64,000 nt of DNA, from assembly GCF_024298765.1 (NCBI RefSeq), contig NZ_CP101210.1; one strand, 5' to 3'. The notes under the pieces are model-generated. The model made no database searches. It had not been told where the DNA came from and saw only the letters and a list, made by a program, of their open reading frames with translations. This DNA comes from Escherichia coli. Its GTDB lineage: Bacteria > Pseudomonadota > Gammaproteobacteria > Enterobacterales > Enterobacteriaceae. Below, piece after piece: positions 45,660-53,027 of the stretch. The translations under genes were made by a program, and so were the position numbers. Every line of letters begins with the position of its first letter. Within the stretch, counting starts at the first letter, position 1.

Positions 45660-47213
45660 TTATTTGATATCCTTCACGCGCATACCGTTGAGCTGTTCAT
45701 CCGTAATGGTGTTGCCCGCTTTGAAGTAATCAACCACCGCGTGATAAACGTAATAACCGCCCGTTGTGTTACGCGCTTTCCCTTCGGTAAAGGCGGTAAA
45801 ACCATCTCCACCATCAGCAAGGAAACTCTGAGTAGCAATGTGATAAACCGTCGCATCTTCAATGGGTTTGCCATTCAGAGCCAGTGTGATTACCCGCTGA
45901 CCAACCGGCTTGCTGCTGTCGTACTTCATTTCCAGGCCTTTCGATACCTGTAAAACGCCATTGCTTAAACTTGCGCCGTGTTCCATCAGACTGCGTAATT
46001 GTTTACCCGTGAGTTCCATCGTCACCAGTTCGTTGGGGAACGGGAACGTACTGATGACGCCGCCCATCGTGATCGCCCCTGCGGGGATCTCATTGCGAAT
46101 GCCGCCAGAGTTGGTTAACGCCAATTGGGTGTTTTTACCCGCCGCTACCAGTAAAGCGTCAGCCGCCAGGTTCCCGAGGGAAGCCGATTCACCATAGGCA
46201 CGTTTTAATTCAACCGGCGATTGCGCCACCGTTTGTTGCACCACTTCATCAAGCTTTTTATTCCAGCCGTCGATCACCTGTTTCGTTTGTGGATCGGGCT
46301 TCCACTCGTCAGCGTAAATGGTTTTAAGCTCGAAGTTTTTCACCGTAAAATTATGCGGCTTCTCTTTGTAGTCGAGAACCAGTTTGCCCACATCAATCCC
46401 GCCGCTGTCAGTGGAGAGGATGAGCGTATTGCCGACTTTAATCGGTTCCGGCGTACCCACATGTGCATGTCCGGTGATCAAAATATCCAGCCCTTTCACC
46501 TGACTTGCCGTCTGAATATCTTTATCCAGCGCGCGACGCACATCTGTGCCTCCCATACTGGACTGGCGGGCCGGAACACCTTCATGGATCAGGGCGACGG
46601 TCAAATCAACCTTGCCTTTAAGTTCATCGATATAACGTTGTAGCCATTTAATTTCATCACGCGCCTCAATACCCACTCGCGTGGCAGCAGATACTGTGTC
46701 ATTAAAGGCAAATACACCGTGCAAACCTATAACGCCTATTTTCACACCGTCTTTTTCGATGATGGTATAGGGCTTATCCCAGAATGATTTACTGCTGTTC
46801 TGATAAAAAACATTGCCCTGCACAATCGGGAATTTTGCCTGACTCAACTGTAATAATGTGTTGTCCCAGCCGTGGTCAAATTCATGGTTGCCTATCGTGA
46901 CGGCATCAAACGGCATAGTATTCATAATATCGATAATAGCCTTACCTTTGGTCAGGCTGCTGATATATGGCCCGGTAAAATAGTCGCCCGCATCAAAAAA
47001 CCATGTCGCTTTATTTTTTGCTTTTTCTTGCTTAACCAGCGTAGTGATATTTGCCCAGCCGCCAATATCCCGTTTACCGTCAGCGATCCACGGCACTTTA
47101 TAAGGTTCTACATGCGCATGGAGGTCGTTGGTATAAATAATAGTGACATCTTTAGCGCAAGCCCAGAACGGCAGTGTTAATGCGATACCCGCAGCAAGTA
47201 TTTTAATTTTCAT
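45660..47213 (-). CDS. secreted metallophosphoesterase / 5'-nucleotidase-family protein, paralogue A
   Basis: ORF 45660..47219; the track start is a TTG codon. The ATG at 47213 (RBS aaggga, 6-nt spacer) gives [34 protein letters not shown]..., 517 aa. It has a signal peptide and the motifs NDLH, GDYFTG, GNHEFD, HEG and GHAH, plus a 5'-nucleotidase C-terminal-type domain (NSGGIR, STFPFPN). Confidence 0.88.
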
Positions 47214-47272
47214 AAACAATCCCTTTCAGTGAGATAAAGGATTGCTACATTACGTTCTGAAAGACTTATTTA

Positions 47273-47288
47273 TGTGAGAGTAATCACA
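47273..47288. promoter_or_regulatory. perfect CRP-consensus palindrome TGTGA-N6-TCACA
   Basis: tgtgagagtaatcaca read directly. It is centred in the 132-bp divergent region between paralogue A and the Zn-ribbon ORF. A TAATGT hexamer on the minus strand (47247..47252) would put the site near -41.5 for paralogue A. Confidence 0.6.
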
Positions 47289-47345
47289 TCTGCAGGGGAT
47301 AGTTGCCGGACAAAATCAACGACCTTGTGAAATCGTTGGTGATAT

Positions 47346-48470
47346 ATGTCGACTCTGTTTACGATTAATGCCTGTAAAACGTTCGGTTGCCGAAATTTGG
47401 GATTGGCCTCATCGGAAGATTACAGTTGGCCAGACTATAAACTGGGTTATCCGGCACTGCACTGTCGGGCATGTGGCAGTTACCCGCCGTTGTTTGACGA
47501 GCAACAATTTCGTGACTGGTTGTCAGTTCACTTATCTACGTGGGCCTCGGAGAAGGGTCATTTCTGCCCGGTATGTTATGGCACAGACATGATTTGTTAT
47601 GGTCACAATCCACAGGGTTCGCAACGCATTCAATGCCGTAACTGCAAAAAAGTCTGGACGCCTAAACAGTATCAGAAAGAAATTACGCATCCCCAGGCCA
47701 TTGAAACCGTTCAACTGTTCATACCCTTTCAAGGGGCCAGCGCAGTACAAAAACTGTATGTTTTAGTCAGTCTTGACGCCACTCGTGGCAACATTCTTCA
47801 TCTCTCCACGAATTATACGCAACATCAGACAGGAGACAGTCTGCGGTACAGTTACAAGGGCAACACAGAACCAACTATGCACCATCGCGATATCGTGCAG
47901 AAGGTAGATATGCGTGAAGCGCAATTCTTGCGCCGGAGCCAGTTCGATGAAATTCAGTATGGCAGTGCTGTACTCAAGCGCAACGGTAAGGGAGCCATAC
48001 TACGCCCGGTTATCACGGCACACGGGCATTTCAGAATACTGAAAATCCGCTATCCAGATGTCAAAACGCATATTATTTCACACGAATGTTTTCTAAGAGG
48101 CGCAATTATTACAGCCTGGGCAGATCAGTTCCGCCAACAACAAGGTGAACTTTGGTTCGTAGAAGAAGAAATCAGTGACAGTAACGCTGATACGCCCTGG
48201 CATTTTAAGGGAACGACATACCATGGTTGGTGGCAAAATCAGTGGCAGCGCTGGGAGCAGGGGAATAACTGCAAGATGGTCTGCCTACTCACGGGAGCCA
48301 GCTTAGAAAGGGGCGCAAATGTTTCTCTGGCAACCAGTCGTTGTTTTATCACATGGCTGACAGACCAACACGACTTTACCCAAAGCGCGTTATTATCCGC
48401 AGGTCGCGTAACGCAAATGCTGACCTCACTGGCGTTAAAATACAATGAATCGCTCACTCCATCTTGTTAG
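47346..48470 (+). CDS. hypothetical protein with two N-terminal zinc ribbons (second one IS1 InsA-like)
   Basis: 374-aa ORF with an ATG start. Cys pairs are C10/C15 + C40/C43 and C74/C77 + C97/C100 (CPVCYGTDMICYGHNPQGSQRIQCRNCKKVW). The C-terminal roughly 270 aa has no motif I can place, apart from a W/Q-rich patch HGWWQNQWQRWEQ. Confidence 0.7.
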   Translation: MSTLFTINACKTFGCRNLGLASSEDYSWPDYKLGYPALHCRACGSYPPLFDEQQFRDWLSVHLSTWASEKGHFCPVCYGTDMICYGHNPQGSQRIQCRNCKKVWTPKQYQKEITHPQAIETVQLFIPFQGASAVQKLYVLVSLDATRGNILHLSTNYTQHQTGDSLRYSYKGNTEPTMHHRDIVQKVDMREAQFLRRSQFDEIQYGSAVLKRNGKGAILRPVITAHGHFRILKIRYPDVKTHIISHECFLRGAIITAWADQFRQQQGELWFVEEEISDSNADTPWHFKGTTYHGWWQNQWQRWEQGNNCKMVCLLTGASLERGANVSLATSRCFITWLTDQHDFTQSALLSAGRVTQMLTSLALKYNESLTPSC

Positions 48471-48542
48471 TCAATACACTCGACAAACGACCATAAATTA
48501 AGAGAGATCACTACCTTTCATTTAATTAAATATATAAATGTA

Positions 48543-48567
48543 TGACCGTGAAATATAATCATGGTCA
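48543..48567. promoter_or_regulatory. inverted repeat TGACCGTGA-N7-TCATGGTCA (candidate operator)
   Basis: Read directly. The arms are 9 bp with one mismatch. It lies in the 229-bp A+T-rich region upstream of paralogue B. Confidence 0.35.
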
Positions 48568-48589
48568 ATGTTTAATTAATAACATTATT

Positions 48590-48605
48590 TGTTACTAAGA
48601 TCACA
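48590..48605. promoter_or_regulatory. CRP-like site TGTTA-N6-TCACA
   Basis: tgttactaagatcaca has one mismatch to the TGTGA-N6-TCACA core. It lies about 100 bp upstream of the paralogue B start. Confidence 0.4.
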
Positions 48606-48702
48606 TAATACTTTTCTGAACTATGCTTACATAAAATAAGACACGATGTGCCTTTTATTTAAATAATTCAACAAATGTAACACACCCTATCCAGGAGGGA
48701 TG

Positions 48703-50253
48703 ATGAAAACTGTATTTACAACATTATCAGTCATATTCGGCGTGATATTTTCTCACAGTGTTCTAGCTCAGGACGTTACTATTTATTATACGAATGACAT
48801 TCACGCACATGTCAATCCGGCAAAAATCCTCGCTGTTGATAAGAACAGACTTATAGGTGGTATGGCTAATATTGCAGGCATCGTTAATGAAGCGAAGAAA
48901 AAAAGCAAAGATGTGTTTTTCTTTGATGCAGGCGACTATTTTACCGGGCCGTATATCAGCACCCTGACCAAAGGTGAAGCTATTATTGATATCATGAACA
49001 CTATGCCCTTTGATGCGGTGTCTGTTGGTAATCACGAGTTCGATCACGGTGTGCCCAATATGGTGTCTCAGTTATCAAAAGCAAAATTTCCCATTCTGCT
49101 GGGAAATATCTACTACACCGATACGAATAAACCAGTTTGGGATCATCCGTGGACCATTATCGAAAAAGATGGTTTAAAGATTGGTGTGATTGGATTGCAT
49201 GGCGCATTCGCTTTCTATGATACAGTCGCGGCAAAAGCACGTGAAGGCGTAGAAGCCAGAGACGAAATTAAATATTTAAATAAAGCACTTGCAGAATTAA
49301 AAGGCAAAGTCGACATTACCGTTTTGCTAATTCACGAAGGTGTCCCGGCGCGTCAATCAAGCTTTGGTAGTAAAGATGTGGAGCGGCTACTACAGGCAGA
49401 TATTGAGACAGCTAAAAAAGTGAATGGTGTTGATGTCTTAATTACCGGTCACGCACATGTCGGAACACCGCAACCAATAAAAGTTAATAACACATTAATT
49501 GTATCTACCGATGCATACGGCACCAACATCGGAAAACTTGTGCTTGATTACAATCCGAAAACGAAGAAAATTGATAGTTATAATGGTGAGTTAATCACCA
49601 TCTTTGCAGATCAATTTAAACCTGACACCATCGTTCAAAATACTATTGATAAATGGAGTGCAAAGCTTAACAAAATAACACAGGAAGTTGTCGGCCATTC
49701 TCCCGTAGTTTTAACACGTGAGTATGGTAGTTCCTCTTCTACCGGCAACCTTATTCTTGATGCAATGATGGAAAAAACACCTGATGCCGTTGCCGGATTT
49801 CAAAATAGCGGTGGGATTCGAGCTGATTTTCCTAAAGGCGATATCACACTGGGAGATGTTATTAGCACATTCCCCTTTAATAATGACCTCATCGAGATGG
49901 ATTTGACGGGCCGCGATCTCAAATCATTGATGACGCATGCAACCAATCTAACTAACGGTGTGTTACAAGTTTCTAAAAGTGTTGCGGTTGTCTATGACAG
50001 CAAAAAACCCCTCAACCAACGGTTAATCTCTTTCACCATTAACGGCAAACCTGTGGAAGATAATCAAACATATCGTATTGCCACGCACTCCTTTTGTGCC
50101 AGTGGTGGTGACGGTTTTGAAGCATTTTTGAATGGAAAAAATGTGAAGACGATACCGGGAACAACCTCGGCGGAATCTATCATCGATTATTTCAAAAATC
50201 ATAAACCTGTCACCCCAGACTTAACTAAACGAGTCATGGACGTCGCCAAATAA
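48703..50253 (+). CDS. secreted metallophosphoesterase / 5'-nucleotidase-family protein, paralogue B
   Basis: ORF 48700..50253. RBS aggagg at 48693..48698 favours the second ATG (48703). Protein starts MKTVFTTLSVIFGVIFSHSVLAQDVTIYYTNDIHAH... It has a signal peptide, the same metallophosphoesterase motif series, and NSGGIR / STFPFNN in the C-terminal domain. Confidence 0.88.
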   Translation: MKTVFTTLSVIFGVIFSHSVLAQDVTIYYTNDIHAHVNPAKILAVDKNRLIGGMANIAGIVNEAKKKSKDVFFFDAGDYFTGPYISTLTKGEAIIDIMNTMPFDAVSVGNHEFDHGVPNMVSQLSKAKFPILLGNIYYTDTNKPVWDHPWTIIEKDGLKIGVIGLHGAFAFYDTVAAKAREGVEARDEIKYLNKALAELKGKVDITVLLIHEGVPARQSSFGSKDVERLLQADIETAKKVNGVDVLITGHAHVGTPQPIKVNNTLIVSTDAYGTNIGKLVLDYNPKTKKIDSYNGELITIFADQFKPDTIVQNTIDKWSAKLNKITQEVVGHSPVVLTREYGSSSSTGNLILDAMMEKTPDAVAGFQNSGGIRADFPKGDITLGDVISTFPFNNDLIEMDLTGRDLKSLMTHATNLTNGVLQVSKSVAVVYDSKKPLNQRLISFTINGKPVEDNQTYRIATHSFCASGGDGFEAFLNGKNVKTIPGTTSAESIIDYFKNHKPVTPDLTKRVMDVAK

Positions 50254-50293
50254 AATCTCATTTATCAGTCAATTTATTTAACAAGGAATGCGA

Positions 50294-51913
50294 ATGAAAA
50301 CAGCGCAGCGTACTTTATTTGCCGCAACATTGCTGACTATTTTTTCGACCTCAGTTATGGCGCAGGATGTCACGATTATTTATACCAATGATCTTCACGC
50401 CCATGTGGATTCCTATAAAGTACCATATGTCGCAGACGGAAAACGCGACATTGGTGGCTTTGCCAATATATCTACGTTAGTAAAACAAGAGAAAGCCAAA
50501 AATAAAGCCACTTTTTATTTTGATGCTGGAGACTATTTCACCGGGCCATATATCAGTAGCCTGACAAAGGGCGAAGCAATAATTGATATTATGAATACCA
50601 TGCCTTTTGACGCAGTATCAATCGGTAATCATGAGTTTGACCATGGCTGGGATAATGCCCTCCGACAATTAAGCAAAGCGAATTTCCCTGTTTTATTAGG
50701 CAATGTTTATCATAAAGAGAGTGAGAAACCCTTCTGGAACAAGCCCTACACCATCCTGGAAAAAGATGGCATCAGGATTGGTATTGTTGGGCTACACGGC
50801 GTATTTGCATTTAATGACACGGTCTCGGAGCTCTCTCTCCAGGGACTCGATAATGACAATAATAACCGATTTGATAAATCTTCCGCGACCCTCAAGAATC
50901 AGGGGATTGAAGCACGTGATGAAGTAAAGTATTTGCAGCATTATATCGACGAGTTACGTGATAAGGTTGACCTCACCGTGGCGCTGGTTCATGAAGGCGT
51001 ACCGGCGCGTCAGTCCAGCATTGGCAATACAGATGTTAGACGTGCGCTGGATAAAGATATTCAAACCGCAAGCAAGGTGAAAGGATTGGATATTCTGATT
51101 ACCGGGCATGCCCACGTCGGAACGCCAGAACCAATCAAAGTCGGCAACACCTTAATCCTTTCGACTGACAGTGGCGGTATCGATATTGGTAAATTAATCC
51201 TTGATGTCAACCCTACAGCTCGTACTCATAAAGTGAAGAGCTTTGAGCTGAAAACGGTTTATGCCGATGAATGGATACCCGATCCAACCACACAAAAAGT
51301 TATCAATGGCTGGAATAAAAAACTGGCGGATCTTGTACGCCAACCAGTCGGTGAATCATCGATTGCATTAACTCGTGCCTACGGTGAGTCATCGCAACTT
51401 GGCAACCTGTTTACCGATGCAATGCTTGTCGCTGCACCGACTGCACAAATTGCGTTGATAAACTCCGGCAGTTTACGTGCTGATATAAATGCAGGCACGA
51501 TTACCTTTGGTGACATTACCAGTACATTCCCCTTCAAGAATGAACTTACTGAAATGGATCTCAGCGGTAAGGATCTGCGTAACCTACTGGAACACGGGGC
51601 ATCGCTTACCAATGGCATCCTGCAAATGTCAAAAGGCGCAGAAATGCGCTATACCCTGCAGAAACCAGTAGGTCAGCGCATTGTATCTTTTAAAATTAAT
51701 GGTGAAGAGATCGTTGATACGAATATTTACCATGTTGCGACTACGACTTTCCTTGCACTTGGGGGCGATGGTTTTCTGGCATTCAAAGAAGGGAAAAATG
51801 TCCAGGTCCGCGCCGGAAATAACATGTCCAATGTCGTAATCGATTATTTTAAGAAAGGCCACAAGATTACTCCTGCACAGGTAAATGAAATGCGGGTAGA
51901 AGTAAGCAAATAA
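50294..51913 (+). CDS. secreted metallophosphoesterase / 5'-nucleotidase-family protein, paralogue C (with 20-aa net insertion)
   Basis: ORF 50288..51913. RBS aagga at 50283..50287 favours the ATG at 50294. Protein starts [37 protein letters not shown]... It has the same motif series and is closest to paralogue A. Confidence 0.88.
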   Translation: MKTAQRTLFAATLLTIFSTSVMAQDVTIIYTNDLHAHVDSYKVPYVADGKRDIGGFANISTLVKQEKAKNKATFYFDAGDYFTGPYISSLTKGEAIIDIMNTMPFDAVSIGNHEFDHGWDNALRQLSKANFPVLLGNVYHKESEKPFWNKPYTILEKDGIRIGIVGLHGVFAFNDTVSELSLQGLDNDNNNRFDKSSATLKNQGIEARDEVKYLQHYIDELRDKVDLTVALVHEGVPARQSSIGNTDVRRALDKDIQTASKVKGLDILITGHAHVGTPEPIKVGNTLILSTDSGGIDIGKLILDVNPTARTHKVKSFELKTVYADEWIPDPTTQKVINGWNKKLADLVRQPVGESSIALTRAYGESSQLGNLFTDAMLVAAPTAQIALINSGSLRADINAGTITFGDITSTFPFKNELTEMDLSGKDLRNLLEHGASLTNGILQMSKGAEMRYTLQKPVGQRIVSFKINGEEIVDTNIYHVATTTFLALGGDGFLAFKEGKNVQVRAGNNMSNVVIDYFKKGHKITPAQVNEMRVEVSK

Positions 51914-51989
51914 CAAAAACTTATAATACCATTCATTCACTGGATGACATTATTTCTCTCTAAATCAACAATATATAAGAGATATATTT

Positions 51990-52850
51990 ATGTATATAAA
52001 AAAGCACTGGATAGCTTTATCCATTCTATTAATACCTTGCATTGGAAACGCTCAGGAAATTAAAATTGATGAAAGCTGGTTACATCAAAGCTTGAATGTC
52101 ATTGGTCGCACAGACTCTCGCTTTGGCCCAAGACTGACTAACGACCTCTACCCTGAATATACTGTAGCAGGAAGAAAAGACTGGTTTGATTTTTATGGTT
52201 ATGTTGATCTACCAAAATTCTTTGGCGTCGGCAGTCACTATGATGTTGGGATCTGGGATGAGGGCTCACCACTATTTACGGAAATAGAACCTCGGTTTTC
52301 CATTGACAAATTGACCGGATTAAATCTTGCGTTCGGCCCATTTAAAGAATGGTTCATTGCAAACAACTATGTCTATGATATGGGTGACAACCAGTCATCC
52401 CGGCAAAGTACATGGTATATGGGGCTTGGTACAGATATCGACACGGGTCTACCAATTAAGCTTTCTGCCAATATATACGCCAAGTATCAGTGGCAAAACT
52501 ATGGTGCCGCTAATGAAAATGAATGGGACGGATATCGATTCAAAATAAAATATAGCATCCCTCTTACAAATTTATTCGGAGGGCGATTGGTATACAATAG
52601 TTTTACTAACTTTGATTTTGGCTCCGATCTTGCGGACAAGTCACACAATAATAAACGAACCAGTAATGCTATTGCTTCAAGCCATATCCTTTCCCTTCTA
52701 TATGAACACTGGAAATTTGCATTTACACTACGTTATTTTCACAACGGTGGACAATGGAATGCGGGAGAGAAGGTTAACTTCGGAGATGGTCCATTTGAAT
52801 TGAAAAATACAGGATGGGGAACCTATACTACTATTGGTTATCAATTTTAA
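51990..52850 (+). CDS. Tsx-family nucleoside-specific outer-membrane channel paralogue
   Basis: 286-aa ORF with a signal peptide ([23 protein letters not shown]). Long blocks are shared with E. coli Tsx as I recall it ([84 protein letters not shown]). It has a C-terminal aromatic residue ...IGYQF. Confidence 0.9.
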
Positions 52851-53027
52851 ATTAGGTGACATTTTAGATATTGTTACTTAATGTCATTTTGTAATTGTCA
52901 TTAATAACTTCACCATTCACTCTGTTACTTCATCGCTCAACACAAAAGCCCCCTTATTACCGGGGGCACTGACCAAAGGCAAAATGACAATCAATCACCA
53001 CTTCCCCAGGAAGAGGTTTAGGGGTGA

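Follow-up and report, generated by a model that had tools for sequence, protein, structure and literature searches.

The window analysed here, a stretch of 64,000 nucleotides (nt) from Escherichia coli (contig NZ_CP101210.1), covers the chromosomal region katG-metF ... metL, with an accessory island between metF and metL. Within this island, at 47346..48470 on the plus strand, lies an open reading frame (ORF) of 374 codons, uninterrupted from its ATG start, exactly as the first-pass annotation of this DNA had delimited it. Its product is a member of a family of transposase-derived zinc (Zn)-ribbon proteins, for which the RefSeq product names are 'cytoplasmic protein' or 'hypothetical protein'. 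Judged from its sequence, the gene appears to encode a conserved, catalytically disabled transposase-like zinc protein, and we propose that this protein may act together with CRP as a regulator of the neighbouring 5'-nucleotidase gene and of itself.

Anatomy and ancestry of the zinc-ribbon protein

We aligned 51 family members, with identities down to ~20%, and used this alignment as input for an AlphaFold2 model of the window protein, which reached a predicted local distance difference test score (pLDDT) of 94.3 and a predicted template modelling score (pTM) of 0.93. A long-form member of the family was modelled with a pLDDT of 91.6. The protein is laid out as follows, in amino acids (aa) and window coordinates:

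47346..48470, plus strand: the ORF, 374 aa, ATG start
47373..47474, plus strand: Zn ribbon 1 (C10, C15 ... C40, C43), Cys kept in 92-94% of the 51 members; beta-hairpin at residues 26-40 in the model
47565..47645, plus strand: Zn ribbon 2 (C74, C77 ... C97, C100), of the IS1 InsA / IS1595 / IS1249 type
47646..47696, plus strand: linker, aa 101-117, short (17 aa); site of an InsA-like helix-turn-helix (HTH) in distant members
47697..48134, plus strand: RNase H-like core, aa 118-263, in the order b1 b2 b3 a1 b4 a2 b5 a3
48147..48287, plus strand: extra four-stranded beta-sheet, aa 268-314, bearing a conserved GWW..W patch (model and conservation)
48303..48455, plus strand: C-terminal helical bundle, aa 320-370, ending in a conserved Y-N367 (model and conservation)

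The eight Cys noticed in the first pass (positions 10, 15, 40, 43, 74, 77, 97 and 100) are all present; each is conserved in 92-100% of the members, and the confident model places them on beta-hairpins, with a long helix connecting the two hairpin ribbons. Ribbon 1 has no match in any library, Pfam and NCBIfam included. The likeness of ribbon 2 to IS1 InsA, which the first pass had noted, proved real and solid at the level of the family, but it is weak in the window protein alone. By itself the window protein scores E 0.007 and 16.5 bits against Pfam Zn_ribbon_InsA (cut-off 26.1), E 7e-5 and 23.2 bits against NCBIfam IS1_IS1595_Zn (cut-off 28), and 22.4 bits, N-terminus only, against transpos_IS1 NF033558 (cut-off 100); all its matches in these two libraries are sub-threshold and confined to residues 74-135. 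Across the family, Zn_ribbon_InsA is matched by 14 of the 51 members (best E 4e-8) and IS1_IS1595_Zn by 21 of the 39 long forms (best E 1.6e-9). The IS1, IS1249 or IS1_IS1595_Zn models are matched by 18-21 of these long forms, at the N-terminus only and far under the cut-offs. When the family profile was compared by hhalign with residues 4-87 of IS1A InsAB', which span its zinc finger and HTH, the probability was 96.5% (E 9e-10), and the window protein was gapped over the HTH (InsA residues ~45-87). In long forms, ribbon 2 and b1 are separated by ~55 extra aa that fold into three helices (114-127, 133-140 and 144-169 in the long-form model), and this insert is the InsA-like HTH. An evolutionary series can be read within the family, from Zn finger, HTH and core to Zn finger and core.

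The core of the model shows the b1-b2-b3-a1-b4-a2-b5-a3 topology of the RNase H-like fold found in DDE (Asp-Asp-Glu) transposases and retroviral integrases, and it superposes on solved cores of such enzymes; Foldseek by itself gave weak matches to the RNase H superfamily. No similarity to IS1 InsB was detected by hhalign of the family profile (probability 0.1%). Sequence searches of the PDB returned chance zinc-motif matches only, for example papillomavirus E6, with E values of at least 0.08, PHROGs offered nothing beyond weak zinc-finger matches and PADLOC gave no defence-system match. With an InsA-type Zn finger, an InsA-like HTH in the long forms and a DDE/integrase-like RNase H fold, the family is of transposase ancestry.

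The catalytic DDE triad itself was not found in this core. When positions are assigned from the order of the secondary-structure elements and from column statistics, T121 stands at the centre of b1 in the window protein, a place taken by T or S in 48 of the 51 members, and b4 is followed by R220-P221-V222. The sole universally acidic column is E247 (46 E, 5 D), which follows H246 after b5 and stands at the start of the next helix, at the position where DDE enzymes put their Glu. Two motifs that had been likened to DDE-type strand-Asp motifs are rejected as catalytic positions on column statistics and on the secondary structure of the model: LYVLVSLD is strand beta2, and its D144 is acidic in only 75% of the members, while ITAWADQF lies in the helix after E247 and its D261 is not among the columns that are at least 60% acidic. 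The residues that are invariant or nearly so are R197, Y205, P221, H228, H246, E247, R251, W296, W300 and N367, with R197 and H228 as invariant landmarks of the core. The W-rich patch, which had been singled out as unusual, is indeed conserved, with W295 in 86%, W296 in 98% and W300 in 100% of the members.

Signs of mobility are lacking as well. The ORF protein gave no match to transposase catalytic models, and, as the first reading had it, no inverted or direct repeats flank the ORF; there is no target duplication around it either. The gene occupies a single frame, in contrast to the two frames of an IS1A copy found in E. coli CT30, and one place per genome in all 1841 E. coli genomes that match it. 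Against other alleles and genera, the ratio of non-synonymous to synonymous substitution rates (dN/dS) is 0.10-0.22, which indicates purifying selection on the ORF.

Comparison with known transposases brings out both kinship and distance. The four-Cys Zn finger of ribbon 2 is of the type seen in IS1 InsA and InsAB', long-form members have the same HTH after it, and the order of Zn finger, HTH and RNase H-like core is that of InsAB'. Unlike InsAB', the ORF protein has an additional N-terminal ribbon, is encoded in one frame with no programmed -1 frameshift, and has a core that lacks both sequence similarity to InsB and the two Asp and is ~110 aa longer, a beta-sheet and a helical tail having been added. 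Unlike IS1 as an element, the ORF is present in single copy and has no inverted repeats, and the clade of the window protein has lost the HTH. Transposases of the IS256/Mutator and IS1249 types are of similar length, and the N-terminal IS1249 and IS256_N_4Cys models match 13-18 of the 39 long forms; these matches, however, are limited to the Zn finger and reach ~30 bits versus a cut-off of 300. In a structural alignment with the ISCth4-type transposase (PDB 6xg8) identity is 9-10%, and the catalytic DDE of that enzyme is absent here.

Conserved partners and a divergent promoter module

The ORF had been called an orphan, a label that did not survive an exhaustive HMMER scan of 1.84 billion representative proteins. 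This yielded a small family of 123 clusters, defined at 50% identity, whose members come from Enterobacteriaceae, Vibrionaceae and Psychromonas. Full-length homologues with 60-82% identity occur in ~20 enterobacterial genera, including Citrobacter, Klebsiella, Enterobacter, Kluyvera, Pluralibacter, Pseudocitrobacter, Phytobacter, Kosakonia and Rahnella, and distant relatives of 400-530 aa with 20-35% identity in Vibrio, Photobacterium, Enterovibrio and Psychromonas. Conservation thus reaches well beyond the strain, and no full-length match to an active insertion sequence (IS) transposase was found; a gene confined to this strain, or such a match, would have spoken against the first-pass hypotheses. 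Among 5426 complete E. coli genomes, the 1841 mentioned above contain the ORF DNA. Neither Pfam nor NCBIfam has a model for the family.

The genes beside the ORF, and the elements between it and its divergent neighbour, are the following:

45660..47213, minus strand: paralogue A, an exported metallophosphatase/5'-nucleotidase, conserved partner of the ORF; RefSeq ATG at 47213
48700..52850, plus strand: B-C-tsx operon, two further 5'-nucleotidases and a Tsx-like channel; lower-GC accessory block
47223..47263, no strand: inverted pair CTTTCAG (47223-47229) / CTGAAAG (47257-47263), conserved; flanks the putative -10/+1 of A and overlaps its Shine-Dalgarno
47247..47252, minus strand: putative -10 of paralogue A, TAATGT (TAAnnT conserved), assigned from spacing and conservation
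47273..47288, no strand: consensus CRP site TGTGA-GAGTAA-TCACA, half-sites 10/10 in the window and 8-10/10 in 42 sequences
47311..47316, plus strand: putative -10 of the ORF, CAAAAT (nAnnnT conserved), assigned from spacing and conservation
47315..47340, no strand: CAAC-box palindrome ATCAACGA-N10-TCGTTGGT, candidate operator, unique in the window; ends 5 nt before the ORF ATG

A search based on a 14-sequence alignment gave 58 species loci, and in 57 of them a periplasmic 5'-nucleotidase adjoins the gene. The nucleotidase is divergent and ~130 nt away in all 41 enterobacterial loci; in Vibrionaceae and Psychromonas it lies directly upstream on the same strand, with a gap of 20-40 nt, in 16 of 17 loci, the remaining one (L072) being a partial match only. 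Other distant members are divergent from nupC and a nucleoside phosphorylase (PNP) gene, or from nupC-deoC-deoA-deoB-deoD, and one lies inside a tsx-sulfatase operon. Scavenging genes are neighbours in every fetched context with an intact copy, whatever the chromosomal site, and the module occupies three such sites, in Klebsiella, in Enterobacter and in E. coli/Citrobacter: the Klebsiella gene is divergent from a nucleotidase-tsx-nucleotidase operon and that of Enterobacter hormaechei from a nucleotidase-nucleotidase-tsx operon, each at a different locus, and the Citrobacter gene is at the metF-metL site. The first-pass annotation had placed the ORF where a dedicated regulator of the cluster would be expected. 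Of its neighbours, the divergent paralogue A is the conserved partner and the downstream B-C-tsx operon is not. With a single copy, no ends, no conserved Asp pair, a dN/dS of 0.1-0.2 and fixed synteny, the protein is to be regarded as domesticated.

The promoter module between A and the ORF is conserved too. We aligned the spacer of the window with those of 41 other enterobacterial loci (42 sequences in all). The right arm of the palindrome, AAATCGTTGGT (47330..47340, 11 bases), is invariant in all of them, and in 42 of 42 the distance from the start of ACCAAC to the CRP-like site downstream, taken in the direction of paralogue A, is exactly 52 nt. Beyond the enterobacteria, [AT][CT]CAAC, a motif picked after the alignment had been viewed, stands at offset 52 in 12 of 19 loci and at 51 in one, with at most one occurrence at each other offset between 20 and 90; 9 of 16 loci from Vibrionaceae/Psychromonas have the strict ACCAAC at one of these two offsets. 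In Vibrionaceae this arrangement of box and CRP site lies upstream of the nucleotidase, and in nupC-type loci beside the gene's own start. The ORF is the only gene co-inherited with the CAAC box in every locus examined. The alignment also shows the TAAnnT hexamer on one strand and the nAnnnT hexamer on the other, both ~31 bp away from the centre of the CRP site; if they are the -10 elements, the CRP site would be near -41.5 for both A and the ORF.

Could the box be a known element? As a second CRP site it is rejected, with 1/5 matches in its left half, and as a CytR octamer it is rejected too, CAAC alone being shared (the conserved extension is GATTT versus AATG). The nucleoside regulon of CytR and CRP (deo, udp, cdd, tsx, nupC and nupG, in E. 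coli and Vibrio) is among the closest known systems: its targets are of the same class, and there too a consensus CRP site is paired with a further protein site, which lies some five helical turns upstream. The two CRP sites of deoP2 are separated by 52-53 bp. The difference is that here the upstream element is neither a CRP site nor a CytR octamer and the associated protein is not of the LacI type.

A candidate regulator and its alternatives

The reading we favour, at a probability of roughly 0.55, is that the ORF encodes a domesticated and, to judge from its residues, catalytically dead transposase that would act with CRP as a dedicated regulator of A and of itself. A regulatory role is proposed because of the conserved neighbourhood and the conserved CAAC-box/CRP promoter module; the gene co-occurs with scavenging genes and with the candidate operator (57/58 loci, nupC and tsx contexts, 52-nt offset). 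We infer DNA binding, the sign of regulation and a ligand. The protein's target would be the CAAC-box palindrome (47315..47340), whose start is 52 bp, or five helical turns, away from that of the CRP site. A single CRP site would be shared by two class II promoters arranged back to back, which would start near 47240 (minus strand) and 47323 (plus strand). From ~-89, a position from which activators cooperate with CRP, the protein might then modulate, most likely co-activate with cyclic AMP (cAMP)-CRP, the transcription of 5'-nucleotidase A. The box would also cover the -10, +1 and Shine-Dalgarno of the protein's own gene, leading to autorepression. The RNase H-like core, in its dead state and with its invariant R197, H228, H246/E247 and W300, could serve as an oligomerisation or signal-sensing module. 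IS1 InsA, a Zn finger and HTH protein, is a sequence-specific transcriptional repressor and offers a precedent: it acts beside its own promoter, the role that we propose for the ORF protein. A domesticated, transposase-derived regulator of the cluster had been one of two hypotheses raised in the first pass; its ancestry and its domestication hold and it is the one we prefer, with A rather than the cluster as the conserved target.

Several points weigh against this regulator. The HTH is missing from the window protein and from the whole enterobacterial clade, so that DNA recognition there would depend on the zinc ribbons alone, and residues 1-117 carry a net charge of only +3. The absence of the catalytic Asp was mapped from element order and column statistics only. 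A generic sigma-70 scan did not call the promoters proposed for A and the ORF, and their assignment (the -10 hexamers and the -41.5 position) comes from spacing and conservation only. In nupC-type loci the module is 366-543 nt from nupC. The CAAC box may instead be read by some other factor that both bacterial families possess: the final four bases of the box coincide with the CytR half-site AATGCAAC, and in some vibrios a LacI-type palindrome, GCAAACGTTTGC, stands beside it. Finally, literature searches returned no binding, expression or genetic work on any family member.

One alternative is that the protein is a cytoplasmic functional partner and not a DNA-binding regulator, with a remodelled pocket (R197, H228, H246, E247 and R251) that acts as an enzyme on, or a binder of, the nucleic-acid fragments or nucleosides that enter the cell once the nucleotidases have acted, while some other factor reads the CAAC box. 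The RNase H-like fold is chiefly a nuclease fold, the invariant His, Glu and Arg cluster in the sequence round the former active-site elements, the Vibrionaceae gene is co-transcribed 20-40 nt behind the nucleotidase as an operon partner would be, and the enterobacterial clade does without an HTH. We nonetheless consider such a partner unlikely: the nucleotidases have signal peptides and the ORF protein has none, which puts them in different compartments; no two-metal acidic site remains; the Zn finger and the HTH of the long forms are DNA-binding modules under strong constraint; and in enterobacteria and nupC-type loci an operator-like palindrome abuts the gene's own start, as is typical of autoregulated transcription factors. 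Less probable again is a regulator at the RNA level that binds the 5' leaders of the A mRNA and of its own mRNA, in which conserved inverted repeats can mask the Shine-Dalgarno sequences, and controls translation or stability. RNase H-like and PIWI-like folds do bind RNA, CAACGA-N10-UCGUUG stands directly before the ORF ATG, and in the A leader CAAUCCUUU can pair with AAAGGGAUUG, forming a hairpin across the Shine-Dalgarno (-13.6 kcal/mol, z -2.35) in which one-sided A-to-G and C-to-U changes retain G-U pairs. Yet 37 distinct leaders gave no consensus structure in RNAalifold, Rfam has no match in 47000..48900, and, if the ORF transcript starts at the putative site, it would not include the left arm of the box. 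Moreover, the box keeps a fixed 52 bp from a DNA site, that of CRP, and in Vibrio lies even upstream of the promoter, which argues for a DNA element.

The other hypothesis of the first pass, a relic or still active IS1-like transposase that delivered the nucleotidase island, we regard as very improbable. It would account for the IS1-type Zn finger and the DDE-like fold, for an island that is accessory and lower in GC content, and for the name 'IS1 family transposase' that NCBI gives to one homologue. Against it, the IS1 score is 22 bits versus a cut-off of 100 and confined to the N-terminus, the core is unlike InsB, the Asp pair is not conserved, and 1841 genomes hold one copy each, with neither terminal repeats nor target duplication. 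The gene is also older than the island and under purifying selection (dN/dS 0.1-0.2), it has stayed beside a nucleotidase gene at several chromosomal sites and across two bacterial families, and the breakpoint of the B-C-tsx block lies inside the ORF, which fits homologous exchange.

The domesticated regulator that we prefer would have a wider meaning. Transcription factors derived from DDE transposases are classic in eukaryotes and, as far as the literature was searched, barely documented in bacteria. Eukaryotic FHY3/FAR1, ZBED and THAP and the bacterial TnpB-derived TldR are domesticated transposase factors; as would be the case here, catalysis and mobility are lost and nucleic-acid recognition is kept in a host regulator under purifying selection. 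Unlike in those examples, the source here is a bacterial DDE IS transposase kept at full length. Our searches found no description of a full-length bacterial DDE IS transposase as host regulator, the terms 'DDE' and 'IS1' are absent from the text of a 2022 review on how prokaryotes recruit mobile elements, and searches with accessions and related concepts found no prior description of the family. A more far-reaching claim, which we put forward tentatively and with less conviction than the regulator itself, is that the family represents a new kind of bacterial transcription factor made from a full-length dead DDE IS transposase, with the core as sensor or oligomerisation module. Such a factor would work from ~-90 with cAMP-CRP at -41.5 as a switch of nucleotide and nucleoside scavenging in Enterobacteriaceae and Vibrionaceae, and its enterobacterial branch, without HTH, would read the palindrome by zinc ribbons alone. 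If the preferred reading is right, this would be an ancient, family-wide bacterial case of DDE transposase domestication. It would also provide a regulator and an operator for the GR 31 nucleotidase/Tsx island of avian and extraintestinal pathogenic E. coli, and the same would apply to the orthologous 5'-nucleotidase genes in Klebsiella, Enterobacter, Citrobacter and many vibrios. The breakdown of nucleotides outside the cell matters for phosphate and nucleoside nutrition and, in other pathogens, for immune evasion mediated by adenosine.

The island, its alleles and smaller features

The name GR 31 was given to the island in the BEN2908 genome paper (2026), which lists Tsx and three UshA-like ORFs and passes over the ORF described here (PMC12928451). 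The GC content changes in steps, from 0.55-0.60 in the flanking core genes to 0.44-0.52 in paralogue A and the ORF and to 0.34-0.47, mostly 0.40-0.43, in the B-C-tsx block (48500..53000), and the island therefore appears layered. Two alleles of the ORF circulate in E. coli. The window type (>=90% identity, that is, at least 90%) is found in ~670 genomes and the second type, of 376 aa and with 80-90% nucleotide identity to the window allele, in ~1175. In the one genome inspected for it (S13), the second allele accompanies paralogue A alone, without B-C-tsx, and its 3' end overlaps metL. Window and S13 are 94-100% identical through metF, A and the spacer, and 70-88% identical from ~47400, within the ORF. 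The synonymous divergence (dS) between the two alleles is ~1.1 for the ORF, and the window allele is nearer to that of Pseudocitrobacter (82% of aa) than to the other E. coli allele (78%). The drop in identity at ~47400 indicates that B-C-tsx entered by exchange with its left breakpoint inside the ORF, a position that fits homologous exchange more than transposition. Two of the 1841 E. coli matches are on records labelled plasmid and not chromosome.

The downstream spacer (48471..48699) holds two further elements:

48543..48567, plus strand: inverted repeat TGACCGTGA-N7-TCATGGTCA, 73 nt past the stop codon and 47 nt before the CRP-like site
48590..48605, plus strand: CRP-like site TGTTA-CTAAGA-TCACA (9/10), upstream of paralogue B; conserved in STLIN_13

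The inverted repeat, to which the first reading had drawn attention, is present. In STLIN_13, whose spacer is 95% identical, its outer 6 bp are kept via a compensatory change of C:G to T:A, and the repeat could form a hairpin that serves as terminator for the ORF, or else be an operator for the promoter of B. The CTTTCAG/CTGAAAG pair in the upstream spacer, which in one species (L025) has the compensatory form CTTTCTG/CAGAAAG, is similarly either a second operator or an RNA leader hairpin. For the start of paralogue A, the mechanical ORF list gives TTG at 47219; RefSeq and a CAT conserved in the 42 enterobacterial sequences give ATG at 47213.

Individual strains add observations of their own. 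In E. coli CT30 (NZ_CP032078.1), the IS1A copy (1709-2406 of the retrieved locus, L074) separates paralogue A from the ORF at a place that corresponds to the window spacer just before 47346, and the ORF as annotated is 5'-shortened; in this strain the proposed operator and promoter are naturally disrupted. Five vibrio loci (L010, L061, L065, L070 and L073) have a perfect GCAAACG(T/A)TTGC of the LacI family (PurR/CytR-like) between the CAAC box and the CRP-like site, which suggests a third regulator in those promoters. Citrobacter sp. wls619 has two paralogues (L023 and L040) that are paired with separate nucleotidases; one paralogue stands at a four-gene A-B-tsx-C operon and the other at the metF site, and ACCAACGATTT is kept in both spacers, so that cross-talk is possible. 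In Salmonella enterica subsp. arizonae (L054) only residues 126-367 are matched, beside an intact nucleotidase, and this copy may be truncated or decaying.

The public names of some homologues differ from all of this: those of Vibrio are called 'lactate dehydrogenase', one of Cronobacter is an 'IS1 family transposase' and a Joint Genome Institute (JGI) entry is a 'transposase-like protein' (P0251, P0252, P0253). These are probably propagating annotation errors, which a proper family definition would mend. Lastly, the operon with tsx and sulfatase genes in which one member lies (L012 6001-7263, P0163) also includes a radical SAM maturase gene, with an arylsulfotransferase fragment following, and in Enterobacter hormaechei the gene converges with one for an arylsulfotransferase (L005 9282-10808). 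These neighbours raise the possibility of a second functional connection, to sulfated substrates.

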